Notes under the pieces: generated by a model
Told to the model about the DNA's origin: nothing
The model's database searches: none
What the model saw: the letters and a program-made list of their open reading frames with translations, nothing else
Made by a program: the position numbers and the translations under genes
Shown here: positions 3,863 through 19,284 of the stretch, in pieces
Layout of the letters: each line of letters begins with the position of its first letter
Numbering within the stretch: the stretch's first letter is position 1
IMG/VR virus record: IMGVR_UViG_3300032053_000019
Location: 34,440-98,439 of that record
DNA: 64,000 bases
Direction: 5' to 3' (one strand)
Origin: a virus

Positions 3863-4068
3863 TCATGCTCCCCGTTGATCAATTAGGCGGACTGGCCGGG
3901 ATCCCACAAGGGTCACGATGGGAGTTCCTGGGCGATCTCAAGACTCGGCAGATGAGCTATCCTATACATCCTCTCTGCCGCGCCTGCGCCAGCGACTGCA
4001 AGGTTCACGACGCCAAGGGGCTGATCGTGTTCGTCTGCCATGCCTTTAAGAAACCTAACCATAGATAA
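3859..4068 (+). CDS. hypothetical Cys-rich protein
   Basis: CRACASDC motif, coupled ORF. Confidence 0.5.
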   Translation: MIMLPVDQLGGLAGIPQGSRWEFLGDLKTRQMSYPIHPLCRACASDCKVHDAKGLIVFVCHAFKKPNHR

Positions 4069-4070
4069 AG

Positions 4071-4146
4071 GGGAATGGTGGAGAAGTGACAAAGGCAAAG
4101 ACATCCGAAAGGATAATCAACTCATCATCACCAATCCACCATTCCT
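4071..4146 (+). ncRNA. guide-like stem-loop unit U0 (orphan)
   Basis: Stem GGAATGGTGGA/TCCACCATTCC enclosing GACA-AAGGCAAAGA-CATC-CGAAAG-GATA-ATCAACTCAT-CATC; same geometry as units at 5725-7342. Confidence 0.8.
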
Positions 4147-4164
4147 ATTTTTTAAAGAAATCTC

Positions 4165-4193
4165 TTGATTTTTGTTTTGAGTTGACTTATAAT
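4165..4193 (+). promoter_or_regulatory. sigma70-type promoter upstream of helicase / RNA-guided locus
   Basis: TTGATT-17bp-TATAAT. Confidence 0.75.
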
Positions 4194-4204
4194 TATGACT
4201 CAAT

Positions 4205-4308
4205 GAGGAAGGAGGCACGATGTCAGTCCTATTAAGTATCACCGCTAATGCGGAATTGACTTTCTCATCTTTGCCTCCTCAGGGATTGCTCGTGCCTCCT
4301 ATCCTTCC
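4205..4308 (+). ncRNA. degenerate guide-like unit in 5' leader with two alternative closing stems
   Basis: GTCC-TATTAAGTAT-CA-CCGCTAATGCGG-AA-TTGACTTTCT-CATC; 5' arm GGAGGCA(CGA) can pair with TGCCTCC (4272) or TCGTGCCTCCT (4290). Confidence 0.5.
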
Positions 4309-4326
4309 TTTTCTTCGGAGTATAGT

Positions 4327-5736
4327 GTGACCTATAAGATCACTCTCGGCAACGTCTTCTCAGAAATGAATGACTACCCAACGGAACTGGAGCAAAGACT
4401 TGCTATTGCCCATCCCAATTTTTGGTTTAGTCCACAATACAAAATGCATGTATGGGACGGGAAAACCCACTTCCTTAAACTAACTCCGACAGTTCACTTC
4501 CCCACGGGTCTCCTTTTCATCGTGGAGGAGTTCCTCAAAGAGAAGGGTCTGGACTATGAACTCATTGATCCTCGCATGCCGATCAAGTATTCCGATGGCA
4601 TGTTAGCTCCAGTTTCCCCCGATCTACTGAATGGTATTACCCTCCGGGAGTATCAGATTACCGCGATTGAGGAAGCAATCCGAAAAAGGCGGGGCGTTCT
4701 TGAACTGCCCACCGGGTCAGGCAAGACCGAAGTAGCCGCAGGTATCATTAAACTCCTTAATCGGCCCACACTCTTTTTGGTACACACGCAGGACCTCTTA
4801 CATCAGACCGCCGAACGATTCACCAACCGCCTTGACATTCCGATTGGCAAGATCGGGGATGGTGAATACGATATAGAAAAACGATGCGTTGTTGCGACCA
4901 TTCAATCTTGCCATGCCCGCCTCAAGTCGAAGGAACAAGACAAGCGAACTGAGATAAAACAATTACTGGAGCGGGCCGAAGTAGTCTTCCAGGACGAAGT
5001 GCACCACGCCAGCGCGAGTACGTGGTACAGCATCGGTCAGAAAACCTTGTCGGCAAGGTTCCGATTCGGATTGTCCGGAACTGTCCTTCGCCGAGACGAA
5101 CTTTCAAACATGAAGATGTTAGCTCTCTTCGGTGAACCGATCTATACTAAACGGACAATGGACTTAGTTGACGATGGATATCTAAGCAAGATTCAGATCA
5201 CTATGATTGATAATCCTGAAGTGGTAGAGGGTACTTCCTGGTCGGACATTTACTTAAACGGTATTGTCAAGTCTGAGTCCCGGAATAAGATGATAGTTGA
5301 TCAAGCCGAGACGGCTTTCCGAGAGAATAAACGAGTTCTACTACTGATTAGGTATATTGATCATGGAAAGACCCTAACTCGTCTGCTTAACGAGCAGAGG
5401 AGTATTCCTACCGTATTCTTGAGTGGACAAAGTGGACGTGATGATCGTAAGGAGCGAAAAGAAGAGTTTAATGAGAATGGAAACTTCATTTTAATTGCCA
5501 GTACAATTTATGATGAAGGGATTGATCTCCCCGAAGTGAATGTCTTAATCATAGCCTCTGGTGGATTAAGTGAAGTCAAAACAATACAAAGAGTAGGACG
5601 TGGTTTGAGAAAGAAGAAGGATGGTTCAACTCTTCAAGTCTTTGACTTTGAGGATAGTTCGGATTATTTGATCAAGCATTCGAAGGAGCGCAAACAAGTT
5701 TATATTCAGGAAGGATTCTTAGGTGTGGACGAGTAA
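4327..5736 (+). CDS. superfamily 2 DNA helicase (UvsW-like)
   Basis: LPTGSGKT Walker A, DEVHH, GLSGT, EGIDLP, QRVGRGLR. Confidence 0.92.
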   Translation: MTYKITLGNVFSEMNDYPTELEQRLAIAHPNFWFSPQYKMHVWDGKTHFLKLTPTVHFPTGLLFIVEEFLKEKGLDYELIDPRMPIKYSDGMLAPVSPDLLNGITLREYQITAIEEAIRKRRGVLELPTGSGKTEVAAGIIKLLNRPTLFLVHTQDLLHQTAERFTNRLDIPIGKIGDGEYDIEKRCVVATIQSCHARLKSKEQDKRTEIKQLLERAEVVFQDEVHHASASTWYSIGQKTLSARFRFGLSGTVLRRDELSNMKMLALFGEPIYTKRTMDLVDDGYLSKIQITMIDNPEVVEGTSWSDIYLNGIVKSESRNKMIVDQAETAFRENKRVLLLIRYIDHGKTLTRLLNEQRSIPTVFLSGQSGRDDRKERKEEFNENGNFILIASTIYDEGIDLPEVNVLIIASGGLSEVKTIQRVGRGLRKKKDGSTLQVFDFEDSSDYLIKHSKERKQVYIQEGFLGVDE

Positions 5737-5967
5737 GATACTGGCAAGAGCGTCCTTAAGGACCAAGGTAGATTCGTCTGCTCGTCCACTTCCTTTGTAT
5801 AATCAAAGACGAGTTAATGATCAAGGGAATGAACACCCCCAGTGGCATGAGTCGGACCAGTCGTTAACTCGTCCGCTTTGCATACGAGAACGAAGAGGGG
5901 TTGGTAAGTCAAATAGAGCATCAGCTTTTGCGTTAAAGACTGGAACAACTACTAATCCTTTCTCTTC
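5725..5967 (+). ncRNA. array of three guide-like stem-loop units U1-U3 (5725-5789, 5808-5873, 5892-5967)
   Basis: Each has an 11-13 bp outer stem of unique sequence with G-U pairs, enclosing 4nt-N10-14nt-N10-4nt. Confidence 0.88.
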
Positions 5968-5986
5968 CATTTTATAAGGAGTTACT

Positions 5987-7105
5987 ATGAGTATCTATGC
6001 CATTGATTGGCACACGAAGAAAGAGATTCCAATTTATGACGGGAAGAAGATCAAGAAGATTCCGAACTCCCCTTTCTCTATTGCCGAATGGGCAAAGGGA
6101 CTTGAAAAGAGAAAGCATATCTTTCTCTTTGAGGCTGGTGGCGGTGACTTCATGAAGATTCTTCTTCACCGTCAAGGGCATACTGTCCTCACCATGCCTG
6201 GTATACATACGAAGCAGTTTCGTGATCGCATTGATGTTGAGAAGACAGACGATACGGACGTGTCACTGATCTACGAATTATATACAAAGTGGGTGGAGGA
6301 GACAGTGGGTCGAGCATCTTCGGGGACAACCGTCCGGTCATCTTCCCACCCACTTTCCTTTTACCCCTTCTCCGAACTGGACTGCACCATCTCATCACTT
6401 CGACTTTTTGTTCGTCGACGCGACTTGGTTCAGGAAGAACGGATACGAGAGAACAACCGGGCTCTGATCTTCAACCTGACCTACTCTCTAACGAACACAC
6501 CAAAGAAAGAAATTGATAAAGTTCAGGAACTTCAAAAGACACGAGTTGAGGATTATAAAAAGGAAGAGGCAAGTCTGACCAAGCAGGTCAATCGTATGCT
6601 AGGCACTCTACCAATCTGGACTGACAAGTGGAAAAAGATCAAGGGGTTTGGCCCTAACATTGTTGGGGGTTTGATCGCCGAACTTGGTAGATGCCAAGCT
6701 CAGACCAGGGCCCAGGTGCGAATGTTCACCAGTATGGTTCCTCGTGAAGCGAATCTTACTGAGAGTGGAAAGCGTCGGCGCAACTCGAATCGTATTCGTG
6801 GGTTGCTATATGATGCAGTTGAGCAGATCATCAAGCAGAAGACTCCGGGGTGGAATGAATGGTACTACAGGTTAAAGGAAAAGTATGCCTCACTTCATCC
6901 TGACTGGTCCAAGGGCAAGGTGGATAACTATGCCCGTCGTGTGCTGAAGACACAACTGGCCATTGAATTCTGGTCTGATCTTCGGCACTATGGTATGTTG
7001 CCAAACAGTGGGGGAGTTAGTGTGACAAACAAACTTACGGTTTCAAAACTAAGAGTTTCCTCATCCGCCTCCTCCTCCCTTTCTTCTACCGAGGCACAAG
7101 TATGA
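5987..7105 (+). CDS. IS110-family-derived RuvC(DEDD)-coiled coil-Nop/Tnp20 protein (TasR-like RNA-guided effector candidate)
   Basis: D7 (YAIDW), E49 (LFEAG), D88/D91 (KTDDTD); IKGFGPNIVGGLIAELG helix-hairpin; SMVP...ESG...NSNRIRGLLY; WYYRLK...ARR; RBS AAGGAG. Confidence 0.85.
   Translation: MSIYAIDWHTKKEIPIYDGKKIKKIPNSPFSIAEWAKGLEKRKHIFLFEAGGGDFMKILLHRQGHTVLTMPGIHTKQFRDRIDVEKTDDTDVSLIYELYTKWVEETVGRASSGTTVRSSSHPLSFYPFSELDCTISSLRLFVRRRDLVQEERIRENNRALIFNLTYSLTNTPKKEIDKVQELQKTRVEDYKKEEASLTKQVNRMLGTLPIWTDKWKKIKGFGPNIVGGLIAELGRCQAQTRAQVRMFTSMVPREANLTESGKRRRNSNRIRGLLYDAVEQIIKQKTPGWNEWYYRLKEKYASLHPDWSKGKVDNYARRVLKTQLAIEFWSDLRHYGMLPNSGGVSVTNKLTVSKLRVSSSASSSLSSTEAQV
6286..6356 (+). ncRNA. guide-like unit U4 embedded in the effector ORF
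   Basis: AAAGTGGGTGG/CCACCCACTTT stem enclosing GACA-GTGGGTCGAG-CATC-TTCGGG-GACA-ACCGTCCGGT-CATC. Confidence 0.85.
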
Positions 7106-7342
7106 TCAAGATTGGTAAGTCAATGACACTTTCGTCCTACGAGATAGACGCAGTATCGGCTACCAATCTTGATCTCTTTTGTAAACAAGATGGGTTGGAA
7201 AGACAAGGGAGTTTCCATTTCTTTAAACATGGTGTAGCGCATCTTCTAATCCATCTTTTCTCTGCTAACAATCTTGAACCAGTAAGACCAGTTCACCTGC
7301 ACCACCATAGGCAATGTCAAAGCCATCTACTGGTTCAAGATT
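7010..7342 (+). ncRNA. array of four guide-like units U5-U8 (7010-7079 inside ORF tail, 7104-7174, 7187-7257, 7270-7342)
   Basis: 14-15 bp stems in U6-U8 (e.g. GATCAAGATTGGTA/TACCAATCTTGATC, AATCTTGAACCAGTA/TACTGGTTCAAGATT), weaker stem in U5; all enclose the same 42-nt core geometry; period 83-95 nt. Confidence 0.88.
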
Positions 7343-7360
7343 TTTCTATTAGGAGACACC

Positions 7361-8239
7361 ATGAGTTATGAGTCAGCAAGAAAACTATTGGGAAAAGTAC
7401 TTGATCGTGCCTGGTTGGTTGAGGTCCCAGGAGCAAGCTATAGGATACTGATTGCCTCTACTACCAATCTTCTCGAACGATTCGCTAGAGAGATTGGTAT
7501 TCCAATATCCTTTGCTGGAGGTTCCGAACGTTACCCCATGTCACCATCTATTCGTGTTTGGAAACAAACCCTCTATGACGCCTTGCAAGGAGGCGCTGAG
7601 CTGATCTCACAAAAGGACTTTGATCATATCTTTTGTGATCAGTGGGGATGCGGTATTAGTATTAACGGAAAGTATTATAGTCCAAAAGAGAGACCGGGCA
7701 TGGATGAGTGCCCGATTGATCAATTAAAAGAGGAGGTCCAAAAAATGGACAACACACCGGTTGATCTGAAGTTGGTTCATCGGTTCCAACTTCGGCCACA
7801 ACTTCGAAAGCTTTTGAGTGACCGAGCAAGGGAGGAGGTGGCAAAGTACCTTATGCCCTTCCGTGAAGGACGAGCCTCAGCAAAAATGTTTCAGGTATTG
7901 TTTGGTCGAAAGAGGAAGAAGGCAGACATAGGTGACGAAGCTGAAAAGGTTGCTCTCTTGGCTAGGGTTACTACAGGAACCGTTGATCGAGCAAAGAGTG
8001 GGCAACGTTGCTATACCAAGAACGGAGTGAAAGTATACTATGACATGGAAGTCACCGCTTCGGTGGGCCTTCTTTACGCGATTGGTATTCTCGAAAATCG
8101 TTCCATACTTAAAAAGTATGAGGACATGCTTTCCCCCACTCGTCGCCCCAAAGTTACTACTGACCGACTCTATACCAAAGCTGAGGTCGAAGAGGCAGTT
8201 GCGATTGCTTTAAAACAACTTCACGAGGGAAAAAAGTAA
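7361..8239 (+). CDS. hypothetical protein
   Basis: 292-aa ORF, RBS AGGAG, immediately after array. Confidence 0.75.
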   Translation: MSYESARKLLGKVLDRAWLVEVPGASYRILIASTTNLLERFAREIGIPISFAGGSERYPMSPSIRVWKQTLYDALQGGAELISQKDFDHIFCDQWGCGISINGKYYSPKERPGMDECPIDQLKEEVQKMDNTPVDLKLVHRFQLRPQLRKLLSDRAREEVAKYLMPFREGRASAKMFQVLFGRKRKKADIGDEAEKVALLARVTTGTVDRAKSGQRCYTKNGVKVYYDMEVTASVGLLYAIGILENRSILKKYEDMLSPTRRPKVTTDRLYTKAEVEEAVAIALKQLHEGKK

Positions 8240-8242
8240 CGG

Positions 8243-8812
8243 ATGAACTTCTTTACCGCCGACCCACACTTCAACCACGGGAACATCATCCGGCATTGTA
8301 ATCGTCCCTTCCGAAATGTCGAGGAGATGAACTCGACGATGATCATGAACTGGAATTCCAAAGTTCGTCCTGGTGATGTTGTCTATGTGATAGGTGACTT
8401 CGTGTGGGAGGGGTTTGGTGAGATCATTCCCAAACTCACTGGGGAGATTCATCTGATCCCAGGCGGGCATGACGAGCGACTACTCCAGTTCTTGAAACGA
8501 AACCCAGGACAGTCAAACCGGGATTGGCAGGAAAGACTAATTATACATCCTCCGATTCTGGAGAAAAGTTTTCCGATGGGAGGTCAGAATGAAAAAGTAA
8601 GAATCATTATGTGCCATTACAGCATGCGAGTTTGGTCGGCGAGTCATTATAACTCATGGCATTTGTATGGCCATAGTCACGGACGCCTTGCCGGTCAAGG
8701 TAAATCCTTTGACGTAGGGGTAGATGCCAATAACTTTTTCCCCTTGTCATTGGTTGAGGTTGCTGATATAATGAATCAACGACCTGATAATTTTAATCTC
8801 GTCCACAGATGA
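8243..8812 (+). CDS. calcineurin-like metallophosphoesterase
   Basis: ADPHFNH, IGDF, GGHD, YGHSH, DVGVD. Confidence 0.9.
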   Translation: MNFFTADPHFNHGNIIRHCNRPFRNVEEMNSTMIMNWNSKVRPGDVVYVIGDFVWEGFGEIIPKLTGEIHLIPGGHDERLLQFLKRNPGQSNRDWQERLIIHPPILEKSFPMGGQNEKVRIIMCHYSMRVWSASHYNSWHLYGHSHGRLAGQGKSFDVGVDANNFFPLSLVEVADIMNQRPDNFNLVHR

Positions 8813-8821
8813 GGAGGAACA

Positions 8822-9142
8822 ATGCCCAAAGCAAAAAAGGTAACCAAAGTAAAAGTACCAAAGCAATTGGTACAAGGAAAGAGAAGTACCGAGCGGCAGG
8901 AGTTTTTCAATAAACATGCCCTTACGATCGGATCCGTCTATGCCGAAGTCAAGTCGTGGAAGGCGACCTCGGCAAAAACAAAACTCCCCCAGTTAATGGT
9001 TGGTTATGTCTTGGCCCGCCTGCTTCCCGATCTGATCAAAGACAAGTATATCCAACGTATGGTCAGTTGTGACTGCTCGCCTGAAGCGGTGATCGCCCCG
9101 ACTCCTCCTGTAGAGGAACAGCCAAAGGCAGAGTCAGTCTGA
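8822..9142 (+). CDS. hypothetical protein
   Basis: RBS GAGGAGG, 106 aa. Confidence 0.7.
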   Translation: MPKAKKVTKVKVPKQLVQGKRSTERQEFFNKHALTIGSVYAEVKSWKATSAKTKLPQLMVGYVLARLLPDLIKDKYIQRMVSCDCSPEAVIAPTPPVEEQPKAESV

Positions 9143-9561
9143 TGGTTGAACTCTTCTATGAAGCAAAGTTCGATGCGGCCCACCGGTTAATGCACCACGA
9201 AGGCAAGTGCAAGAATCTTCATGGTCATACTTGGAGGGTCTCAATCGGAGTAGCAGGGAATCCAGATCCCAAGACGGGAATGGTAGTGGACTTCGCTATC
9301 CTAAAACTCTCGGCGATCAGTTTGGTCATGCACTACTTTGATCATGCTACCATCCTAAACTCCGCAGATCGTGAGTTGTGGATGGCTCTTGAGAAATACA
9401 AGTTGTTTCTCATTGATGGTGAACCCACCTGCGAGAATCTGGCCCGGATGATCTTCGATAAGATCAAAGAAAAACTTGACTGTTCACTTTTCACTTTCGT
9501 CCTGTCGTCAGTTACTGTGTGGGAATCAGAGACTTCCTCGGCCCGTTACTGCGGGCTCTAG
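9142..9561 (+). CDS. queD: 6-carboxy-5,6,7,8-tetrahydropterin synthase
   Basis: FDAAHRL, CKNLHGHTW, GMVVDF, FDH, PTCENLA, VWESE. Confidence 0.95.
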   Translation: MVELFYEAKFDAAHRLMHHEGKCKNLHGHTWRVSIGVAGNPDPKTGMVVDFAILKLSAISLVMHYFDHATILNSADRELWMALEKYKLFLIDGEPTCENLARMIFDKIKEKLDCSLFTFVLSSVTVWESETSSARYCGL

Positions 9562-9589
9562 TATAAAATCTCGAACAAGGAGTAAACAG

Positions 9590-9805
9590 ATGAGTAAGGT
9601 ACTGACACCAAGTCAACTGGTGGAGGAACGAGTGGGGCTTCTTGAAGGCGACTCACTCCCAACAAAGGTCATGAAGGAAAACTTAGTGGCTTTCCTTCAT
9701 GAGTTTTCCTACTTCACTGTCGCGGAGAAGCAAGCAGTTTTTGAGCATCTTGAGCTGGTCTCCCCCAATGCTAGAAGGGCCTTAGTAAGAGTATTCTCGA
9801 TCTGA
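9590..9805 (+). CDS. hypothetical protein
   Basis: RBS AAGGAG before ATG 9590. Confidence 0.6.
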   Translation: MSKVLTPSQLVEERVGLLEGDSLPTKVMKENLVAFLHEFSYFTVAEKQAVFEHLELVSPNARRALVRVFSI

Positions 9806-10149
9806 TCGTGAAGGAATACAAAGACACTCTCGGCATTATTAACGAGATTCCTGGTGAGTGCATTGATACCAGAAACCGAATCAAGGCCTGCCGAGAGTTC
9901 CTTTTTCGCAAGTTACAGGAACAGGAAAAAGGTACTAGTGATAAAAAAGTTCCTATGGAAAATTGTGATGGTCAATAACAAGGTGGTGTTTAATTATAAT
10001 AAGGCCTCATTGGGCCCTGATGGGCTCATCTTGTTTATAGGGATTCTATATTTTCTATTTTCTCAATGGGACACGATAGAGCGCTTTAGCGCTCTAGCGG
10101 GACCCAGTCCGAAACGGACCACGCGGCAAGGCCGCGTACAGGAACTTTA

Positions 10150-10899
10150 GTGACAGAAAAAAGATTTGCTCCTGCTGACCTCTCAGGAACTGAGATGGTA
10201 GGGTTCCTTTCAACCGAAAGTATTTACAAGCAAATTGCCACCCAGTTCAATGAGTTTTGTTGGTACTACCAAAAGCGTCCTAGTTGGTTTTACAAAGGCA
10301 CTATGTTGAGATCAGCCAGTTCGCGAGCAAAGGTCGAGGAGCAAATGCGAAAGTTGATTCTCCTATCAGTTGCCCTTGAAGCGGAGATTACGATCTTCAT
10401 GAAGGCCCAGTTCGAAATGTTGGTGCCTTATTTTTCAGCTAGGAAGATTCCGGTTCGTTTCGAAATGATGATTACTGACAAAGCCATTGATCGGTTCCTT
10501 CGGTACAAAGAAAGGATCAAGGCTCAGTTCAAACTCGAGTCAGATCGTGATCGGGAGTTCTACAAGGTTCCGAAGAAGGATCTGGTCACGGCGATCTTCA
10601 ACTCGGGAGAGGTATACCATTCGGTCCTGATCAAGAAACAGGAGCGACTGGGACGACTGCCGGAACCGGAGGAGGCATTGGAAATACTGGAGGTCATGGC
10701 ACGGGCAGGTATGGTAACCCGCCTTTACGTTGCCACCTCCCCGTTACTAAAGATGGTTGATGGGTGGTCGGAATTCTTAACCAAGCATATTTCGGACACC
10801 TGGGGGATGCTAACAAAAGAGGAATCATACGAACTGCAGAAAGTTCGGGATGAGTTAACCAAGACGATTGAAGAAAGTGAGGTAGGAAAGTATGTCTGA
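10150..10899 (+). CDS. hypothetical protein upstream of helicase (possible loader)
   Basis: 249-aa ORF overlapping helicase start; function from position only. Confidence 0.65.
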   Translation: MTEKRFAPADLSGTEMVGFLSTESIYKQIATQFNEFCWYYQKRPSWFYKGTMLRSASSRAKVEEQMRKLILLSVALEAEITIFMKAQFEMLVPYFSARKIPVRFEMMITDKAIDRFLRYKERIKAQFKLESDRDREFYKVPKKDLVTAIFNSGEVYHSVLIKKQERLGRLPEPEEALEILEVMARAGMVTRLYVATSPLLKMVDGWSEFLTKHISDTWGMLTKEESYELQKVRDELTKTIEESEVGKYV

Positions 10900-12256
10900 T
10901 CAAGAGACCTATACAAAAGATTTTACAGAAGAAATACAACAGCGTATTGTTGCTATGATGTTTTATGATCATGAGGCCTTCCTCATGGTGAAGGAGATAG
11001 TTAAGCCGGAATACTTTGAGAATCCTGTACTGGCTGATCTGGTTCGTCTCATGCTGAAGTACCATGATAAGTACAGTCGATGTATAGACATGGAAGAGTT
11101 GACTCAGGAACTCCTGACGTTTCTTGATAATTCAAAGCGTCCTCTTCCAAAGGAAGTTTATGTGGAGCAGTTTATTGCTCTTCTTACCGATGGTGCTGAC
11201 AAAAGTTATAGATACGTTCTAGATCAGGTGGTCGCATGGACTCAGTACCAGTTGGTCAAGATCGCAATCCTGAAAAGTATCAACCTACTGCAAAAGAAAA
11301 GGGACTATCCGGGGATACTTAAGGAAATTAAGGATGCGGTGTCCATCGGGGAGTCGACGCATGAGATGGGTTCGTTTTACTTTGAGGAACTGGAACAACG
11401 ATTGGCAGATCGGAAAGGTGGTTGGTGCAGGGGGGAAATTTCTATTCCGACAGGAATACCAATTCTTGATCGGCATCTAGGTGGTGGTTTGGCAAAGGGG
11501 GAGTTGGGTATTATTATGGGCCCAACGAAGAGAGGCAAGACAATTACTCTGGTAAACTTTGCCCGAGGTGCTTTACTTAAAGGCAAAAACGTCCTGCACA
11601 TCGGAATGGAAAGTAGTGCACGACGAACGATGGTCCTTTACGACGCCCACTTTTCGGGAGTGTCAAAAGAGAACTTGAAAGATAACGAGGATGTGATCCG
11701 AGAAAAGCTGGCGGAGACTCTGTCCACGATGCAGTGTGGTGTTCTTGTGGTAAAGAACTTTCCTCCTTTGAAGTGCTCCGCCGCTACGATTGAGGCCCAT
11801 CTTCAAAAACTTCGGAACTTGAAGAACCTCCAGGTAGACGTATTACTGCTAGACTACCTGGGATTGATGACCACGGCAGGCAAGCTACTTGATCGTGATG
11901 GAGGCCTATACTCGAAGTTGGGCCAGATCACGAAGGAGTTGTTGGCAGTTGCACAAGAGTATGATGTTGCGATCTGGTTAATACATCAGGCCAACCGGGG
12001 CACTTTGAGCAGAGGTGGTGAGAAGGAAGCGATTGGAATGGTGGACTCTGGGGACTCTATCGAACCCATGCGAGATGCCGATATTATCCTAACATTCAAT
12101 CAGTCGGAGGAAGAGGCGAAGATGGAGGCCGATAATGGGTACCAAGACTGCAGGATCTTTTCGGCTGGTGGTCGAGAAGTTGCTGACAAGTGGAGCATTC
12201 CATTAAAGATAAACAAGGGCAAGTGCCTGATCGTTGAGCCTGGAATGGAGATGTAG
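10892..12256 (+). CDS. replicative DnaB/gp41-like helicase
   Basis: IPTGIPILD, MGPTKRGKT, IGME, LLDYLGLM, HQANR, DADII. Confidence 0.92.
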   Translation: MSDQETYTKDFTEEIQQRIVAMMFYDHEAFLMVKEIVKPEYFENPVLADLVRLMLKYHDKYSRCIDMEELTQELLTFLDNSKRPLPKEVYVEQFIALLTDGADKSYRYVLDQVVAWTQYQLVKIAILKSINLLQKKRDYPGILKEIKDAVSIGESTHEMGSFYFEELEQRLADRKGGWCRGEISIPTGIPILDRHLGGGLAKGELGIIMGPTKRGKTITLVNFARGALLKGKNVLHIGMESSARRTMVLYDAHFSGVSKENLKDNEDVIREKLAETLSTMQCGVLVVKNFPPLKCSAATIEAHLQKLRNLKNLQVDVLLLDYLGLMTTAGKLLDRDGGLYSKLGQITKELLAVAQEYDVAIWLIHQANRGTLSRGGEKEAIGMVDSGDSIEPMRDADIILTFNQSEEEAKMEADNGYQDCRIFSAGGREVADKWSIPLKINKGKCLIVEPGMEM

Positions 12257-12258
12257 TC

Positions 12259-13212
12259 ATGCAGAAAGAAATATTGACCACTGAGCAGGTTTGGAGAATG
12301 GCCAAAGGTATCGTTGAAGATAATGTTTGCTTTCCTCCTGACATGATCATCGGCATCTCGCGGGGAGGAATCTACCCAGCCATGCTGGTTCAACGAATGC
12401 TATCGGAACGAACCTCTCAGAAATTTGACTTTCGTATTGTTGACCCATTCACTTCGGGCTGGATGGATGAGTTCATGGGAAAAAGAATTCTCCTCGTTGA
12501 TGACATTTGGGATACAGGCGCCACGATGCGATACTTTATAGATGAGGCAAAGAAGAAGGGACTTGCTGTTATACCAGCGGCCCTTGTTGTTAAGACGGAG
12601 GGGGAGAGAAAGCAGGAAGTTTGGTTTACCTTTCCCTGGGAAACGGAATCCGACGAACCCGGTGGACGGAAGCAGGCGACCATCACCTTACTCCGATCAA
12701 TCGGGGAGGACCCTCTGCGTGAGGGGCTTCGTGACACTCCTCGACGTGTTGCTAAAATGTGGGACGAACTGACCTGTGGTTATACCCAGGATCCGAAGAC
12801 CCTGTTAGATACCTCCTTCTCTTCTGAGTTGTATGATGAGATGGTCGTTCTGAAAGACATCAAGTTCTACTCAACTTGTGAGCATCACATGCTTCCCTTT
12901 TATGGTAAGGTTCACTTCGCCTACCTGCCCGATAAAAAAGTCGTGGGAGTTTCAAAGATTGCCCGTCTGGTCGAATGTTTCTCTAGGCGCCTTCAGATTC
13001 AGGAACGGATGACCGTGCAGATCGGGAAGGCGTTTGAGGCGGCGGTTGCTCCACTGGGGGTTGGTGTCTTGGTGGAGGGCGTGCACTTGTGCATGATGAT
13101 CAGGGGGGTGGAAAAGGAAAATGCCAAGATGGTCACCAACTATCTTAGTGGTAGTTTCCGTGATCGTCCGGAGGCTCGGGCGGAGTTCCTGAAGATCGTG
13201 GAGGCGACGTGA
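12259..13212 (+). CDS. folE: phosphoribosyltransferase - GTP cyclohydrolase I fusion
   Basis: N-term ISRGG, LLVDDIWDTGATM, FPWE (type I PRTase); C-term REGLRDTPRRV, CEHHMLPFYG, SKIAR, QIQERMT, HLCMMIRG. Confidence 0.93.
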   Translation: MQKEILTTEQVWRMAKGIVEDNVCFPPDMIIGISRGGIYPAMLVQRMLSERTSQKFDFRIVDPFTSGWMDEFMGKRILLVDDIWDTGATMRYFIDEAKKKGLAVIPAALVVKTEGERKQEVWFTFPWETESDEPGGRKQATITLLRSIGEDPLREGLRDTPRRVAKMWDELTCGYTQDPKTLLDTSFSSELYDEMVVLKDIKFYSTCEHHMLPFYGKVHFAYLPDKKVVGVSKIARLVECFSRRLQIQERMTVQIGKAFEAAVAPLGVGVLVEGVHLCMMIRGVEKENAKMVTNYLSGSFRDRPEARAEFLKIVEAT

Positions 13213-14216
13213 AAAACCAGTACCTGATGTCCAGCGTCTTTCTCACCAGACGGTGTCCCATGCACTGTGCCTACTGCAGTCTGCGGGACTCAAAGTTGGT
13301 CGACAAAGAATTGACTGCCAAGCAATGGGCCACCGCGTTTGAGGAACTTGACAAGGTGGGTTGTTCCTTTCATCTGATCCTGGGGAACGAACCCCTCCTT
13401 CTGAAAGGTCTGGTTGATCTGGTATGGTGGATGCGTGGACGAACCCCTTACGCAATCTATACAAGTGGCTATCCCTTGCTGATTGATAAGCACCTTCCGG
13501 CTCTGGTCGAAGCTGGTCTCCCGAATCTTAGTGGTGGGTGTGATAAGTTGATTACTGACCGCTCGCCTGCAACGGATATCGAGAGGAAGTCCAACTATGT
13601 CTTTAACGCACTTCAAAGGGCACGGGGTCTGGGGGTGAAGGATCTTCAGGGAACCATCACCCTATCAAAGTTGAATCTTGATAGTGTGGTTGATACTATC
13701 ACTACCCTCCATGAGGCGGGAATCTGGAGTGGGTTCAATATTATCCATTACAATACGGATGGGCAGTTCGATTTCTTCCCTGAGAAAGAGGCGATCAAGG
13801 ATCTCCTCTTTACTGAGGAGGACTGGCCGAAACTTCGTGAGGTGATGGGTCAGATTGTTTCAATGATAAAGTCAGGTGACTATATGATTCACCCACCTGC
13901 CGAATACTTCCAAGGGATTCTTGATCAGGGAGTTAATCTATCCTGGCACTGCACTCATCCTCTGGTCCTGTCGGTTGACTCGGATGGGAAGATGCGGTGT
14001 TGTGGTTATAGGCGCGGCACACGGTCACCTAACTATAGTGTCTTGAAGTTGAGCAAAAACTATGAGAAGTTTTTGGCGGACAATGCCCAGGATCGGAAGG
14101 AGTGCCCAGGATGCTATTGGTCATGCTACTGGATGGCTGAGTATTATTTTGCTAAGGATCCTGACTTCGGTATAAAAGTTTTCCAGTCTCACGCGACTAG
14201 GAGGAATGATGAGTAA
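13209..14216 (+). CDS. radical SAM protein with C-terminal SPASM/Twitch-like cysteines
   Basis: CPMHCAYC; C-terminal CTHP...DGKMRCC...CPGCYWSC. Confidence 0.88.
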   Translation: MKNQYLMSSVFLTRRCPMHCAYCSLRDSKLVDKELTAKQWATAFEELDKVGCSFHLILGNEPLLLKGLVDLVWWMRGRTPYAIYTSGYPLLIDKHLPALVEAGLPNLSGGCDKLITDRSPATDIERKSNYVFNALQRARGLGVKDLQGTITLSKLNLDSVVDTITTLHEAGIWSGFNIIHYNTDGQFDFFPEKEAIKDLLFTEEDWPKLREVMGQIVSMIKSGDYMIHPPAEYFQGILDQGVNLSWHCTHPLVLSVDSDGKMRCCGYRRGTRSPNYSVLKLSKNYEKFLADNAQDRKECPGCYWSCYWMAEYYFAKDPDFGIKVFQSHATRRNDE

Positions 14217-14928
14217 AGAAACAATCGTCATCACTGGTGCATCCACTGGTATCGGGCGGGCGGTCCTACTTCATTTGTTCGAGAAGTTTCCGGACGCCCG
14301 GTTCATAACAGCAAACCGGAAAATAATTTCTAAGGAGGAGTTGCCTGGGGATATCAAACTTATACAGTTTCCGATTGACCTGGGGGAGTGGGATAAGCTG
14401 TCTACATTGTGTAGATGGTTAGATGGATTGATTATTGATATTCTGGTGAACAATGCAGGGACGATGCCTTTTGCCGCTATAGGTTCAGTGGGTGTGGATG
14501 ATTATAACCAGACTCTGGATGTTAATCTACGAGCTCCCTTCTTCCTATCTCAGGCGTGCATTAGGCACATGCCGGGTGGTGGTCGAATCATCAATGTTGC
14601 TTCAATCGCCGGCGGGCCTTGGGTAGATCCGGATAGTTCAATCATACCTTATAGCATCAGTAAGGCCGGTGTGATCATGTTGACGAGACAGTTGGCAAAG
14701 GCCTTTCCCACACTGCGGATCAACTCAGTTTCACCTGGGTTGGTGGCAGGTACTAACATTGTTGGAGGTGAGCCCACACCGCAGTCCCTGATTGACACGG
14801 TCCCGATAAAGCGGGAGGTGACCACACAGGAGGTTGCCCGTCTGATCGGATTCCTATGCTCAAAGGATGCCGATTACATCACGGGTCAAGATATTGTCAT
14901 AGATGGTGGTAAGACTCTTTGGGGATGA
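14206..14928 (+). CDS. short-chain dehydrogenase/reductase 1
   Basis: TGASTGIG, NNAG, YSISK, INSVSPG, ITGQDIVIDGG. Confidence 0.92.
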   Translation: MMSKETIVITGASTGIGRAVLLHLFEKFPDARFITANRKIISKEELPGDIKLIQFPIDLGEWDKLSTLCRWLDGLIIDILVNNAGTMPFAAIGSVGVDDYNQTLDVNLRAPFFLSQACIRHMPGGGRIINVASIAGGPWVDPDSSIIPYSISKAGVIMLTRQLAKAFPTLRINSVSPGLVAGTNIVGGEPTPQSLIDTVPIKREVTTQEVARLIGFLCSKDADYITGQDIVIDGGKTLWG

Positions 14929-15656
14929 AGATGCTAAAACTAACACGAAACCTTATTGTTATCACCGGAGCGACTAGTGGTATTGGGTATGCTATCTTGA
15001 GAAGATTATATCATCAGTTTCCAGTTGCCCACTTTGTCAATATTGACAAGATACCCCTAGATATCCATGACCTTCCTATCGGATGTAATCTTTTACAATT
15101 AACTGCTGATCTCCGACTTGCCGGCGATCTGGTTTGGGCGTGTGATCAGATAGGCCTTGTCTCCCGACCGGTGGACCTCTTGGTGAATAATGCAGGGATA
15201 TGTCCCTTCCGAAGATTTGAGGAACTGAGTCCTAAGGAGTATGCGGAAACCATGGATGTTAATCTTCGCGCACCATTCTTCCTTTCACAAGTGTGTATTG
15301 CTCAGATGCCCGATGATGGACGGATCATTAACATAGCGTCAACCTCTGGGCATCGTCCGGAGACGGAACCCGAGTTGGTTGACTATAGTCTAAGTAAGGC
15401 CGGTGTGATCATGTTGACAAAGTCCCTGGCGAAACTTTATCCTCGACTTCGTATTAACTCTATCTCTCCGGGGTTTGTGGCGGGAACTGGACTATCTGGT
15501 GTTGCTGGTCTCCCTCCAGAATTGGCAAGTTTGGTTCCACTGAAAAGGTTTTGTCGTCCGGAGGAGGTTGCTGAAGTAGTTGCGTTTTTATGCTCTGACC
15601 AGGCTGATTATATCACTGGACATGACCTGGTGATTGATGGTGGGAAGATCCTTTAG
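14925..15656 (+). CDS. short-chain dehydrogenase/reductase 2
   Basis: TGATSGIG, NNAG, YSLSK, INSISPG, ITGHDLVIDGG. Confidence 0.92.
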   Translation: MKMLKLTRNLIVITGATSGIGYAILRRLYHQFPVAHFVNIDKIPLDIHDLPIGCNLLQLTADLRLAGDLVWACDQIGLVSRPVDLLVNNAGICPFRRFEELSPKEYAETMDVNLRAPFFLSQVCIAQMPDDGRIINIASTSGHRPETEPELVDYSLSKAGVIMLTKSLAKLYPRLRINSISPGFVAGTGLSGVAGLPPELASLVPLKRFCRPEEVAEVVAFLCSDQADYITGHDLVIDGGKIL

Positions 15657-15665
15657 GAGGAAACC

Positions 15666-15860
15666 ATGATACAACTTATTTATCTTGAGCAGGCACCCCA
15701 AACAAAACGACACTATCCCTGTTTTTATTATGTAGACGGGAAGGGAACTTATCATGCAGTTGCTCATGTTATAAAGGCACGGGGAGCTGACAAAGCAATG
15801 CGAGGGGCATTCGAATCGTTAGTGGGTTCTTTGTCAAAGTTAATACCAGAGGGGAAGTAG
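15666..15860 (+). CDS. hypothetical protein
   Basis: RBS AGGAGG. Confidence 0.6.
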   Translation: MIQLIYLEQAPQTKRHYPCFYYVDGKGTYHAVAHVIKARGADKAMRGAFESLVGSLSKLIPEGK

Positions 15861-15861
15861 G

Positions 15862-17484
15862 ATGTGCGGCATAGTGGGTGTTTGGAATCGGGATGGAGCC
15901 TTTGATTGGGATACATACGATGAGTTGTTCTCTGCGGCGGAGAACCGAGGACAGGATGGATTTGGGATCACTTTGGTTCCTGATATCCGAAAGAAGGAGA
16001 TACTGACCTTCAAGTCCACTAAGACATACTCTGTCGACAAGTGGGCTGTCAAGAATTGGTTAATGGATCCTGCCCCGGTAAAGGGCAGTTTGATCATTGC
16101 GAACTTCCGCGCCCAACCAGAGACGGAAGTTGAAAGTTCCGAGAAGAATCTTCAGCCGATTGTATGTACAAAGGAGGGACTGATCCTTTCCCATAATGGT
16201 TCAGTGGCAAATTTCGTGGTGAACAAATACTCCGACTATCAAACAAAGATTGATAGTGAAGTCATTCTCAAGTCCTATCAAACGAGTCGTAATATGGGGA
16301 AAGTTATGGAGGAGATGGTGGGTGGGTTTGCTTTTCTTCTCTATGATCAAGAAGTCAATCGTCTGTTCTGTGTCAATGACTTTAAGCCGCTGGCGATCTG
16401 TTGTATCAGAGGAAAGGGAGTTATACTCCACTCATGTCTTGATGTAATTGAATCAGTAACCAGGAAGATCACTGATGCTCCCCGGTGCGGCATGAACGTG
16501 TGGGAGGACTGGTATTATCATTGGCAGGATGGCAACACCATTCGGGAGATTGATCTTGATAGTGGAATGGAAAGAATCACGACCTTCCAACCCAACCGAT
16601 ACCATCCGGTGTGGAAGCCTTCGCCGAAGATCAATAGCGAGTCCGTCCTGGTCTCTTCATCGGGTGGGATTGACAGCGGCCTGTCTGCGTTCGTCATGAG
16701 GCGTCTGGGATACCGAGTGACTCTGGTGAACTTCAACTATGGTCAGCGGGGCTGGGAGGCAGAGAGTTTGGCCTCCAGGCGCCTTGCTGATTACATGGGT
16801 TCGGAGTGGGTTGGCATTGATCTACAGAACATCTTCAAGGGAGATCCTTCGTCATTGATTAGACCGACCATTCCTATCGAGACAGGGACGGAGAGTTACA
16901 TCAAGACAACGACTGCGTGGGTTAGCAATCGCAACGCAATTTTCCTATCCATCCTTGCCTCGTTGGCGGAACAGCAGATCCTGAGTAACAAGTCGGATCG
17001 AGTTCACCTCGTTACCGGAATGAGTAATCTCACCGAGGAGGGCTTCTATCCTGACAACTCAGAGTACTTCGTTCGTGCCTTCCTGGAGATGACTAAATAC
17101 TCAACACTAGTCGGTGATCGTATCACTTACGTTTCGGTTATGCAACAGATTATGAAGTCCGAGGAGTGGATCCTCGGTAAGGAGCTAGACTTTCCCTTTG
17201 GGATGACAGTGAGTTGTGACCAGCCCTACGTGAACGAGAAAAAGGAAATACTTTTGTGTCGGCAGTGCGGTTCAACTCTTCTTAGCATCTGGGCCGCCGA
17301 GATGGCTGGTGTTGAGGATCCCAGACAGTTTTATGACTTAGAGGGACTACCCGTCATGGAAAAGAGGATTACTAAAGGAAGTAAAAATAAGGTTGACTAT
17401 GCGGACCTGGTCCGGCGAATCAAACTGCCTAGTAAAAAGGACTATGATAGACTGGCTGATCTTTTGATGGGTCCGAGGAATTGA
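15862..17484 (+). CDS. gat-queC: glutamine amidotransferase-QueC fusion (Gat-QueC)
   Basis: N-term MCGI, RGQDG, HNG, IDSE (class II GATase); C-term SSGGIDS, NYGQR, NRNAIFL, YPDN, CRQCGS. Confidence 0.9.
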   Translation: MCGIVGVWNRDGAFDWDTYDELFSAAENRGQDGFGITLVPDIRKKEILTFKSTKTYSVDKWAVKNWLMDPAPVKGSLIIANFRAQPETEVESSEKNLQPIVCTKEGLILSHNGSVANFVVNKYSDYQTKIDSEVILKSYQTSRNMGKVMEEMVGGFAFLLYDQEVNRLFCVNDFKPLAICCIRGKGVILHSCLDVIESVTRKITDAPRCGMNVWEDWYYHWQDGNTIREIDLDSGMERITTFQPNRYHPVWKPSPKINSESVLVSSSGGIDSGLSAFVMRRLGYRVTLVNFNYGQRGWEAESLASRRLADYMGSEWVGIDLQNIFKGDPSSLIRPTIPIETGTESYIKTTTAWVSNRNAIFLSILASLAEQQILSNKSDRVHLVTGMSNLTEEGFYPDNSEYFVRAFLEMTKYSTLVGDRITYVSVMQQIMKSEEWILGKELDFPFGMTVSCDQPYVNEKKEILLCRQCGSTLLSIWAAEMAGVEDPRQFYDLEGLPVMEKRITKGSKNKVDYADLVRRIKLPSKKDYDRLADLLMGPRN

Positions 17485-17486
17485 TC

Positions 17487-18200
17487 ATGGTAAAAAGTAG
17501 ACGTCCCGTCCTGATGTTCAGTGGGGGGCTTGACTCATTGATTGCCTGGTTTGCTTTGGGCAAGCCAAAGGCAGTTCATGTTCACTTGGGTCATCGCTAC
17601 GGAGCATCGGAATACTTTACGTCTATGAGCATTGCGAAGCGATTAGGCATGGACTTGATCATTGAGAAACGATTGTACCTCGGTGATCAGGAAGCACCTG
17701 ATGCCTATATCCCAATGCGTAATCTTTTTCTTGCCATGATTGGTGCACTTTACGGGGACGATATTTACTTGGTATTCCAAAAAGGTGAGCAGTCCATTCC
17801 TGATCGTTCGCCTGAGTTCCTGGATAAGGCGTCAGAGATGCTATCGTTCCTTAATGAACGAAGGATCGTGGTGGACAGTCCCTTTCATAATATGACGAAG
17901 TCAGGCATGATCAGGTGGTACCTTGATCAAGGCAACGAAAAGTGTCCGGTTGATGTTCTCTATAAGTCATTCTCCTGCTTTGGATCGGACTCAACAAAGG
18001 TTCCTTGCGGAGAGTGTGCCGCCTGTTTCAGGCGATGGGTAGCCTTTGAGAATAATGGACTGAGTCTTGCCCTTCGTGCAGATATCAAAGAGTGGGCAGG
18101 AATTCCTGGTTACATTAAACGGGTGAAGGCCGGAGAGTATGATCTTGATCGTGCTAGGGAAATTGAGGGGGTCTTAAGGAGGCATGGATTATGGAAGTAA
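17487..18200 (+). CDS. queC: 7-cyano-7-deazaguanine synthase-like protein (second QueC)
   Basis: FSGGLDS, YIPMRNLFL, MTKS, SFSC...PCGECAACFRR. Confidence 0.88.
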   Translation: MVKSRRPVLMFSGGLDSLIAWFALGKPKAVHVHLGHRYGASEYFTSMSIAKRLGMDLIIEKRLYLGDQEAPDAYIPMRNLFLAMIGALYGDDIYLVFQKGEQSIPDRSPEFLDKASEMLSFLNERRIVVDSPFHNMTKSGMIRWYLDQGNEKCPVDVLYKSFSCFGSDSTKVPCGECAACFRRWVAFENNGLSLALRADIKEWAGIPGYIKRVKAGEYDLDRAREIEGVLRRHGLWK

Positions 18201-19282
18201 AAGTTTCCGGAGTGGAAGTTGAACGAGTCTTGAGTGCGGTATTGAGGTTTACTGAACCAAACAATTTTCTTCCAGCAAGTGATTTGGTAATTTTTGATCG
18301 TATATACATAATTACCACCATGGTTTGGGGGGGATGCGTTCACCTCAGTAGTTTCTTCAAAACGGAGAAGCCGCTAGGTCTTCCTGTCGACTTGCTAAAG
18401 AGGGTTCGTGCGGGTCTTGAGGGTAGGTTAGACAAGGAGGTAACTATCATTCTGGACGAGGTAGCGGAAGACATTTCCTTTAGGGTGGGACGTGATCGTA
18501 GTGTGGTTCGTGCCCAAACAGCACTGAAGTATACAACCCCCGATCGTATAAAGTCGGATGATGTCGTCTTGTATGAGGCCACTGGTGATGTAGTTGGTGA
18601 TCTTCAGAAGTTGTTGTTTTCCTGTTCTGACAATCCCTATGATGTGAAGTTTAATGGTGTCTGGTGGTCGGAGAATGATCATGCCTGGTATGCGTCGGAT
18701 AACTTTAGGATAACTCGTTTTCCATCGAAATGTAAGTTGGGTCTTGAGGGGAACTTTTTTGTGCCCTCAACCTTTATTGAAAAGTCCGGTGGTTCAACGG
18801 ATAAACTTGAGTTTGTGGGACTTGATGAAAACTCTTGTTTGTTTTTCTTCAAGGACTATATTACATCGTTCCTGGTGATGGAACACAAGATGCCTCCCTT
18901 TGCCTCAGCCTTTGCGGGTGCAAGGGAGGAGGCATTATCCTCAGAACAAAGATTTACAATTAACATGCCGAAAGAGGATGTTGCACGATATCGAAAAACA
19001 TTCCGAGAGGCAGGATCTGCTCCGGATATCAACATATACAAACGAGACGATGGGGTCTATATGCTGGACGCCCAGTATAAGCATACCCAAACGGGTAGTT
19101 TTGAGACGGAGGTTGATCTAGTCGATGTTTCGGGGGAGATCGCCTTTACGATTGATGGTACCTTCCTGTTGGATGCTCTTGAGCGGTTTAGTACTTTTTA
19201 CCTGGTGGAGAAAAAGCACATCTACGCAAAGAACGAGGAGTCAGGAATGGAGCAACTTATTGCATGGAAGATAAGAGGATAA
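18191..19282 (+). CDS. putative DNA sliding clamp (beta-clamp-like)
   Basis: 363 aa; FNGVWW...YASDNFRI, FFVP, FTIDGTFLLDAL resemble DnaN; next to polymerase. Confidence 0.6.
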   Translation: MEVKVSGVEVERVLSAVLRFTEPNNFLPASDLVIFDRIYIITTMVWGGCVHLSSFFKTEKPLGLPVDLLKRVRAGLEGRLDKEVTIILDEVAEDISFRVGRDRSVVRAQTALKYTTPDRIKSDDVVLYEATGDVVGDLQKLLFSCSDNPYDVKFNGVWWSENDHAWYASDNFRITRFPSKCKLGLEGNFFVPSTFIEKSGGSTDKLEFVGLDENSCLFFFKDYITSFLVMEHKMPPFASAFAGAREEALSSEQRFTINMPKEDVARYRKTFREAGSAPDINIYKRDDGVYMLDAQYKHTQTGSFETEVDLVDVSGEIAFTIDGTFLLDALERFSTFYLVEKKHIYAKNEESGMEQLIAWKIRG

Positions 19283-19284
19283 CT

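Follow-up and report, generated by a model that had tools for sequence, protein, structure and literature searches.

The locus considered here, a set of hairpins around and within the gene for a RuvC-domain protein in an uncultured sediment phage of 98 kb (whole genome 98,439 nt), raises the question of whether these elements form one RNA-guided system and, if so, whether that system is of a new kind. Positions refer to the window, the 64,000-nt stretch of this genome that was analysed, and all features lie on its + strand. TIGR-Tas systems are small modules that target DNA under RNA guidance and independently of a PAM. We consider it highly probable (roughly 85%) that the phage carries a system of this type, of the stem-loop class and with a TasR effector, as an accessory cassette comprising one TasR protein and nine hairpin guide units, each with two short variable segments. 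No DNA match to the phage genome was found in a phage collection search, its DNA polymerase shares no more than 28% identity with those of known phages, and a search of 185,579 prokaryote species genomes recovered no TasR relative.

Architecture of the proposed guide units

The sequence-only reading had proposed nine 42-nt cores with a 4-10-14-10-4 geometry, and all nine were recovered in place, each exactly once and on the + strand. The first unit, U0 (4071..4146; core 4088-4129), has a T run behind it and stands apart, 1.6 kb from the remaining units and ahead of the helicase promoter. U1 (5725..5789; core 5737-5778), the 5′ stem of which codes for the final helicase residues and stop codon, U2 (5808..5873; core 5820-5861) and U3 (5892..5967; core 5908-5949), with G-U pairs and one bulge in its stem, precede the tasR gene (5987..7105). 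U4 (6286..6356; core 6301-6342) is in frame within tasR (approximately residues 100-124), and U5 (7007..7080; core 7024-7065) codes for the disordered C-terminal tail of the protein. U6 (7104..7174; core 7119-7160), U7 (7187..7257; core 7202-7243) and U8 (7270..7342; core 7286-7327) follow; behind the last come a T run and the RBS of the following gene. U1-U3, tasR with U4 and U5, and U6-U8 together make up the accessory cassette (5692..7350), with joints present in runs X3 and X5; the block is unaligned against the related phage G001. The neighbouring genes encode a helicase, TasR, a protein without family match and a phosphoesterase. Outside the cassette, and part of its context, is a sigma-70-like promoter (TTGATT-17-TATAAT; 4165..4193), conserved in G001, which by its sequence would drive the helicase, U1-U3, tasR and U6-U8 on a single transcript.

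The whole genome (98,439 nt) was scanned for the frame motif with the 4-10-14-10-4 geometry required exactly, which returned 71 matches on the + strand and 174 on the - strand. Ranked by closing-stem energy, the nine units are the best nine + strand matches (-15.8 to -26.4 kcal/mol), followed by a + strand match at 8646 (-15.1 kcal/mol), and the best - strand match reaches -14.0 kcal/mol. The match at 8646 was rejected as a tenth unit; its frame is poor, and it is probably a chance occurrence, since it falls within the coding region of the phosphoesterase gene, which is conserved in G001, a relative without the system. The frame Y[A/C]-N10-C[A/G], as originally described, fits 18/18 half-units, and each core has a separate outer stem, 9-15 bp long, that closes it. 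In an ungapped alignment of the units only columns C31 and C55 are invariant, while both bases change in 19 of the 21 named pairs, and none of 500 shuffles attains any of the five measures. The + strand folds better than the - strand in seven of the nine units, with 14 G-U pairs in total. Within a unit, spacers A and B show no complementarity beyond that of shuffled sequences, so that the proposed internal loop is open. The claim that the outer stems are unrelated needs a correction: U1, U3, U6, U7 and U8 have box-adjacent stem bases in common (..GGTAA / TAC..), and such bases are likewise shared in the stem-loop class (Xu et al. 2026, bioRxiv 10.64898/2026.09.09.750476). CUU occurs at or near the 3′ stem base of 7/9 units when the flanks are read by eye, with a probability of 0.20 in a random 14-nt window, at the position of the processing motif of Xu 2026 (bioRxiv 10.64898/2026.09.09.750476).

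This architecture has been described before. The published stem-loop units have non-conserved stems and two spacers with a small hairpin in between (Faure 2025, PMC12045711; Xu 2026), and loop hairpins and units within the tas ORF are on record (PMC12045711; bioRxiv 10.64898/2026.09.09.750476), with examples in PlTasA (Faure et al. 2025, PMC12045711; bioRxiv 10.64898/2026.08.11.744272) and in PateTasR, CsTasR and BlTasA (Xu et al. 2026, bioRxiv 10.64898/2026.09.09.750476). The phage locus shares with these systems the variable palindromic stems, two 8-12-nt spacers each between a box C and a box D, the inter-spacer hairpin (described for some clades), the CUU near the stem base, units placed upstream, downstream and in disordered segments of the tas ORF, a viral or metagenomic origin, and a single effector gene with no adaptation genes. 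It differs in that U0 is parted from the other units by the 1.4-kb helicase gene, and in its box letters. Here box C is YA(A) and box D is CR instead of UG or CG, giving YA(A)-N9/10-CR; the frames (GA)YA-N10-CR(UC) can also be read as YAA-N9-CR, in which reading the first spacer base is A in 13/18 half-units and box D is CG in 5/18 and CA, with A in place of G, in 13/18. The combinations formed by the Y and R bases are C-A (10), U-A (3), U-G (2) and C-G (3). With nine units, fixed geometry and covarying stems, the locus falls in the stem-loop class with variant box letters, and motif-anchored finders may catch only part of it. An Rfam search gave no match above chance. CRISPR-Cas features were not encountered either, there being no shared repeat (two invariant columns only) and no cas genes among the neighbours.

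Since the architecture is already published (Faure 2025; Xu 2026 preprint), the locus belongs to a known kind; the very high novelty implied by the sequence-only reading is not supported, because the structure-only stem-loop array type had been reported (PMC12045711; bioRxiv 10.64898/2026.09.09.750476). The cassette is a well-formed example of this type and no new system.

Cassette-less and distant relatives

The phage G001 (84% alignable, about 90% identity) lacks both 5692-7350 and U0, such that all nine units and tasR are absent together, while the helicase, promoter and leader are kept. Junction sequences place 31 nt in relatives where the cassette stands, and U0 represents an insertion of about 95 nt relative to cassette-less G001. 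The locus thereby offers a clean present/absent contrast with a 90%-identical phage. Homologous loci without units had been named beforehand as refuting the sequence-only proposal; this check speaks for the proposal, as G001, without units, is also without the protein.

The closest protein relative of TasR, P0003, shares 40% identity. Among 51 related loci, hairpin units on the tas strand occur in 42, with 114 units on this strand vs one on the opposite strand, which extends the association to distant relatives of the protein. These units take the form G(C/U)UA-N9-UG...YU(A/U)-N9-UG(C/U), and many occur, like U4 and at the corresponding position, inside the tas ORF. The boxes are CUA-N9-UG in 42/51 loci, in contrast to YA(A)-N9/10-CR in the phage, the genome of which contains no CUA-N9-UG unit. 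Since the box letters differ from those of all relatives obtained and no canonical unit occurs in the genome, recognition of the guides by TasR is something we infer.

One strain appears to hold a swapped spacer-loop-spacer module in the intragenic unit U4. In run X2, tasR flanks of ~91% identity enclose a different in-frame 34-nt U4 module, GACA-AAAGTCCGCT-TATCCTTAGAGACA-AAAGGCAAAA-CATC. The variant comes from two short metagenome contigs, at their loose ends, and suggests a possible replacement of guide modules between strains. The contigs aligned to the locus are of DNA, none of the listed sequencing runs being RNA.

The TasR effector and its possible activities

By sequence and by modelled fold, the 372 amino acid product of 5987..7105 is a TasR, with a RuvC domain (D7, E49, D88, D91), a coiled coil and a Nop-like C-terminal domain. 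The best match in a single-sequence search is 9mty_A (TIGR-TasR; E 2.5e-11), and with a family profile the same structure is matched over profile positions 2-311 (E 1e-50), ahead of TasH (4e-14) and IS621 (3.5e-9). The AlphaFold model (pLDDT 86.9; pTM 0.82) has long helices at 130-167 and 173-205 and, after them, a C-terminal domain that is also helical; together with the profile this points to a Nop-like RNA-binding domain on a coiled-coil dimerisation scaffold, as in TIGR-Tas proteins. A Foldseek search with the model returned 9MTY first (E 6e-13), next IS621/ISCro4 and TasH, and weakly the Nop5 RNPs, so that the comparison proposed with IS621, TasR and Nop5 comes out for TasR. The U4 site forms a variable insertion C-terminal to the RuvC domain (model pLDDT down to 59 at residues 111-120), and the tail encoded by U5 (residues 343-372) has a modelled pLDDT below 50. 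Across 20 family members D7 is invariant, conservation of E49, D88 and D91 is 90% or higher, and all four align with TaTasR, bearing out the reported DEDD tetrad. Sequence, fold and conserved residues thus support the proposal of a phage multi-guide RNA-guided nuclease or binder of the IS110/TIGR-Tas superfamily.

The dual-repeat TaTasR (PDB 9MTY; Faure et al. 2025) has the same order of RuvC, coiled-coil and Nop-like domains and an adenine directly 5′ of each spacer, and its catalytic D11, the D11A mutant of which is inactive (PMC12045711), aligns with D7. It differs in its 36-nt tigRNAs, which are cut out of an array where conserved edge and loop repeats recur regularly; the phage guides each possess a long stem of their own and no conserved repeat, and the proteins share ~22% identity in structural alignment. 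Box C/D sRNPs (Nop5 with C/D RNA; PDB 3PLA, 3ID5) likewise combine a pseudo-symmetric RNA with two box-framed guide segments and resemble the phage protein distantly in the fold of the Nop domain (Foldseek E about 0.04-0.05), but the phage units lack K-turn boxes (RUGAUGA/CUGA), the phage protein has a RuvC domain and its target would, by family, be DNA. No fibrillarin or L7Ae gene was seen adjoining the locus.

The nuclease residues look intact from the sequence, unlike those of the characterised stem-loop TasRs, PateTasR and CsTasR being dead, and the locus thus presents a complete phage-borne TasR with catalytic residues in a class with only dead effectors characterised. Because the acidic tetrad is conserved in the phage protein and across its family, TasR is predicted, with a modest lean, to cut both strands and not merely to bind. 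An intact tetrad is in itself no proof of nuclease activity. In a possibility that we rate as real, if the less probable, the system is the same but its effector only binds DNA and, guided by RNA, represses the transcription of host or competitor genes in the manner of CsTasR, PateTasR and TasA: every stem-loop Tas protein examined to date acts by repression and none cuts (bioRxiv 10.64898/2026.09.09.750476), and nine guides could let the phage silence host genes. However, the dead TasRs have substituted acidic positions (R8 and V126 in CsTasR), whereas D7, E49, D88 and D91 are present, family-conserved and aligned with active TaTasR in the phage protein.

An IS110-type RNA-guided recombinase that moves its own cassette with bridge-RNA-like guides is very improbable. 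The IS110 bridge-RNA recombinase IS621 (PDB 8WT6 to 8WT9), the second-best fold match, shares with TasR the DEDD RuvC, the coiled coil and a related C-terminal domain, together with guide loops reading both DNA strands (in the phage, by analogy); cassette presence differs among close relatives, Pfam gives weak DEDD_Tnp_IS110 and Transposase_20 matches, and the loop at 253-266 reads ..TESGK.., similar to the catalytic-serine loop YESGSS of IS621. Both Pfam scores are nevertheless under the curated cut-offs, the serine loop is absent or altered in family relatives, and the profile match to IS621 is much weaker than that to TasR. The phage has nine independent single-hairpin, two-segment guides instead of one two-loop bridge RNA, and no guide matches the G001 empty site or the remainder of G001 beyond chance. 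Least probable of all is a reading of the hairpins as intergenic structures of the usual phage sort (terminators, RNase sites or REP-like elements), functionally unconnected with tasR, for although T runs after U0 and U8 make transcription termination possible, this leaves unexplained the fixed geometry, the two invariant cytosines and the pseudo-symmetric frames, and it is at odds with two in-frame units within the protein gene, the joint loss of all nine units and tasR in G001 and the analogous, strand-biased units (114 vs 1) of the protein's relatives.

Candidate targets and a working model

For the stem-loop TIGR-Tas system favoured here, no natural target was found in its own genome, G001 or the public collections searched. 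In the phage genome, the 20-nt targets defined by the nine guides (A + rcB, gap 0-2) are matched at best at 15-17/20, equal to the shuffled level, and the 18-nt cores behave alike; the 17/20 match of U5 to an exonuclease gene is within the null, 17 being reached by two of 60 shuffles. Guides directed against synonymous variants of the phage's own genes were likewise unsupported: near-matches with at most one non-wobble mismatch number three vs a null mean of 0.74 (P about 0.03, with thresholds set post hoc), and the homologous G001 sites for the U1 and U5 near-matches give no better match, the U4 site being unmappable in G001. Homing or competition guides against cassette-less G001 were rejected as well (best 17/20, within the null). 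Short junction words are not below expectation (8-mers: 45 observed vs 33 expected; 10-mers: 3 vs 3), so there is no restriction-like avoidance. In viral_contigs, queries of all 20 bases gave no exact target for U1, U5, U6 or U8; for such a search an 18-nt core is the better query. U7 has five exact matches in genome_contigs, where about three are expected by chance in 596 Gb; four of them fall at a single homologous site, within the gene for ribosomal protein L33, in cyanobacterial MAGs that are related to one another. This site is present in only 2/201 cyanobacteria, U0-U4 have no site with two or fewer mismatches in the cyanobacterial genomes of the U7 match, and the match is treated as chance.

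By analogy with TaTasR, PlTasA, PateTasR and CsTasR, the system may work as follows. The + strand would be transcribed mainly from the promoter ahead of the helicase, and a host RNase would excise the nine hairpins near their stem bases to yield tigRNAs of ~60-80 nt. A TasR dimer would assemble on each RNA, one Nop-like domain reading the box pair of the outer stem and the second the pseudo-symmetric pair of boxes at the inner hairpin of 3-4 bp. The variable segments, 9-10 nt each, would then pair with opposite strands of a single 18-20-bp DNA site, in which segment A precedes the reverse complement of segment B and 0-2 bp may separate the two.

The picture of what a TIGR-Tas system is remains unchanged by this locus. 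We tentatively suggest, as a fuller account whose probability we put on the low side, a stem-loop TasR that is able to cut and is served by a box D of C-type, mostly CA. Its guides would be renewed in nature by 34-nt module swaps that retain the 42-nt frame, also within the reading frame of the effector, and the cassette and its distal unit U0 would be acquired or lost in one piece between 90%-identical phages. If true, module swapping would give a natural view of the turnover of TIGR guides, a question that Xu et al. list as open, and TasR would be a compact stem-loop nuclease beyond those characterised.

Geometry and structure of the hairpin units

Nine 42-nt cores, each found once on the + strand (U0-U8; window 4088, 5737, 5820, 5908, 6301, 7024, 7119, 7202 and 7286), share the 4-10-14-10-4 layout with two variable segments (A and B) that the sequence-only reading had described, and each is enclosed by a strong outer stem when folded with its flanks. 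The genome, a single contig of 98,439 nt of which the window represents bases 34440-98439, was scanned for Y[AC]-N10-C[AG] ... Y[AC]-N10-C[AG] in this exact geometry, and matches were ranked by closing-stem energy. The loose frame motif alone is matched 71 times on the + strand and 174 times on the - strand genome-wide; the nine units occupy the first nine places on the + strand (-15.8 to -26.4 kcal/mol), while the best-ranked match on the - strand reaches -14.0 kcal/mol. Ungapped alignment of the units reveals only two invariant columns, the cytosine after each variable segment. The outer stems are, however, not wholly unrelated as had been claimed, as U1, U3, U6, U7 and U8 have some sequence in common at the stem positions closest to the boxes. 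The fold-and-align comparison bears out the structure, with both sides changed in 19 of its 21 pairs and the observed values attained by none of 500 shuffles; sliding the register by -1 gives a score equal to register 0, since several units contain a one-base bulge. Seven of the nine units fold better on the + strand than on the complement, G-U pairs total 14, and complementarity between segments A and B of one unit is not above that of shuffled segments.

A further hairpin (window 8646-8687; -15.1 kcal/mol), located within a phosphoesterase gene, has a stem rich in G-U pairs and fits the frame in part. This region is conserved in G001, a relative phage without the system, and the hairpin is thus probably a chance match. 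Listed ORFs of 84 aa (window 5723-5977) and 89 aa (window 7102-7371) lie wholly over U1-U3 and U6-U8, respectively, and are probably not genes.

The TasR protein and its relatives

The protein encoded by tasR (P0001, 372 aa; window 5987-7105, +) shows only sub-threshold Pfam matches to DEDD_Tnp_IS110 and Transposase_20. Its single real match among PDB sequences is the TIGR-TasR 9mty_A of Faure et al. (E 2.5e-11), which a 20-member family profile matches over nearly its full length (1e-50), followed by TasH (4e-14), IS621 (3.5e-9) and ISCro4 (7e-6). The AlphaFold model is confident (pLDDT 86.9; pTM 0.82), and with Foldseek its best match is 9MTY (E 6e-13), then IS621 and ISCro4, and TasH, with weak matches to Nop5 box C/D RNPs. 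The two low-confidence stretches are those encoded by hairpin units: residues 111-120 from U4 (mean pLDDT 59; 117-119 below 50) and 343-372 from U5 (below 50). The DEDD tetrad is retained as proposed, D7 being invariant in the family and E49, D88 and D91 conserved at 90% or more; D7 aligns with D11 of TaTasR, of which the D11A mutant is inactive (PMC12045711). In IS621, the loop PRRYESGSS carries the catalytic serine, and the TasR loop PREANLTESGKRRR (window 6743-6784, residues 253-266) is alike. Such an ESG tripeptide at the serine-loop position would suit an IS110-type recombinase, but most relatives have a shorter loop or one without the serine, and it is not a conserved feature of the family.

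The family is small: among 1.84 billion representatives, HMMER retrieves 100 proteins with E of 0.001 or below and 26 at 1e-10, the closest sharing 40% identity; no relatives were found in 185,579 prokaryote species genomes. One viral and 50 metagenomic loci encoding relatives (~30-34% protein identity) were compared. Of the 51 loci, 42 contain hairpin units with the pattern G(C/U)UA-N9-UG ... YU(A/U)-N9-UG(C/U), 114 on the tas strand vs one on the other; many of these units sit inside the tas ORF, at the position corresponding to U4. Such canonical units are absent from the present genome, and its own frame pattern occurs in the relatives at background level (three matches per strand), indicating that the box letters of this locus differ. 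The frame can be read as (GA)YA-N10-CR(UC), with closing pairs GA:UC, or, shifted by one base, as YAA-N9-CR. The latter is near the sets allowed by TIGRFinder (box C CAA, box D CG), with A as the first spacer base in 13 of 18 half-units and Y/R pairs comprising C-A (10), U-A (3), U-G (2) and C-G (3). The neighbours of tasR vary, from head-morphogenesis genes in the related locus L001 to a helicase in this phage, which is consistent with an accessory module.

Co-inheritance of the cassette and possible exchange of a guide module

The locus is found in sediment metagenomes. Sequencing runs X3 and X5 retain the helicase gene (~93% identity), with 31 nt in place of window 5692-7350 (U1-U3, tasR, U5-U8) and 166 other letters in place of window 4048-4307. 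The same empty form is observed in G001, a viral record of 96,621 nt (CheckV 100% complete) to which 84% of the present genome aligns at ~90% identity, the cassette being one of 13 unaligned blocks. There, the helicase stop is followed directly by the RBS of the downstream gene, and upstream the promoter and structured leader are kept while ~95 nt bearing U0 are missing. Thus tasR and all nine units, including U0 at a distance of 1.6 kb, are present or absent together. That the hairpins are unrelated to TasR is excluded by this co-inheritance, the unit geometry and the family-wide association. Mobility of the cassette between relatives would also fit an IS110-type recombinase; the empty site is, however, unmatched by the guides, and with the serine loop not conserved this explanation is unlikely.

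Similar short words flank the cassette, TTCTTAGG on the left (window ~5716) and TTCTATTAGG on the right (~7343), with TTCATAAAGG at the empty site of G001; these may represent microhomology or a target-site remnant. The leader (window 4205-4315) forms a long hairpin that contains, besides an RBS, an upstream ORF of 36 codons, the stop of which overlaps the helicase GTG start. It is kept in the cassette-less G001 with compensatory stem changes, and as such is a regulatory element in its own right, belonging to the helicase operon, rather than a TIGR unit.

In run X2, two short contigs ~91% identical to tasR stop exactly at GACA (6304) and restart at CATC (6339), their loose ends carrying another 34-nt module, likewise arranged as 10-14-10. 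Judging from these two contigs only, the whole spacer-loop-spacer module looks to have been swapped in frame.

Target searches and proposed function

Given the cleavage geometry with 3' overhangs (Faure et al. 2025; PMC12045711), a target would read on one strand as segment A plus the reverse complement of segment B. In the phage's own genome and G001, guide matches (20-nt or 18-nt cores) do not exceed those of shuffled guides, and no avoidance of junction 8-mers and 10-mers was found. Near-matches with mismatches at wobble positions show a weak excess (3 vs 0.74 expected; P ~0.03), which the homologous G001 sites, mappable for U1 and U5, do not support, matching no better. For four guides, IMG/VR contains no exact 20-nt target. 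For U7 (spacers at window 7206-7239), the target AGGGAGTTTC-N-CGCTACACCA has an exact match in four related cyanobacterial MAGs (L060, L062, L063, L064), within the gene for ribosomal protein L33 (..KGVSRYTT..), where the one-base gap coincides with the wobble position of a serine codon. This site is rare among cyanobacteria, and the match count is within chance (~3 hits expected in the 596-Gb collection); these MAGs contain no near-match to any of the five other guides tested (U0-U4). For most TIGR systems the targets are unknown (Xu et al. 2026; bioRxiv 10.64898/2026.09.09.750476).

A stem-loop TIGR-TasR system is the best-supported reading of the locus. The tigRNAs would be transcribed along with the helicase operon from a promoter at window 4165-4193, each would be bound at both of its box pairs by a TasR dimer, and the target would be an 18-20-bp site of which each strand base-pairs with one of the two spacers. 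The stem-loop TasRs PateTasR and CsTasR are RuvC dead and function as repressors (Xu et al.), whereas the acidic tetrad is intact here; since it is also conserved, cleavage is modestly favoured over binding only.

The observation and interpretation of the sequence-only reading were sound, and every structural feature it named had previously been described. Faure et al. 2025 (PMC12045711) presented this second TIGR architecture beside dual-repeat arrays, and Xu et al. catalogued 2,559 stem-loop arrays, with units upstream, downstream and inside tas, where they encode disordered segments and leave the frame unbroken, with only box-adjacent stem bases conserved and, in some clades, a secondary hairpin separating the spacers. 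The locus is another example of this kind of system. Genes of queuosine/7-deazaguanine type (Gat-QueC-like, phrog_1550, phrog_10428) are located amid replication genes at window 9142-20313, and modified DNA could be relevant to a phage with its own DNA nuclease gene.
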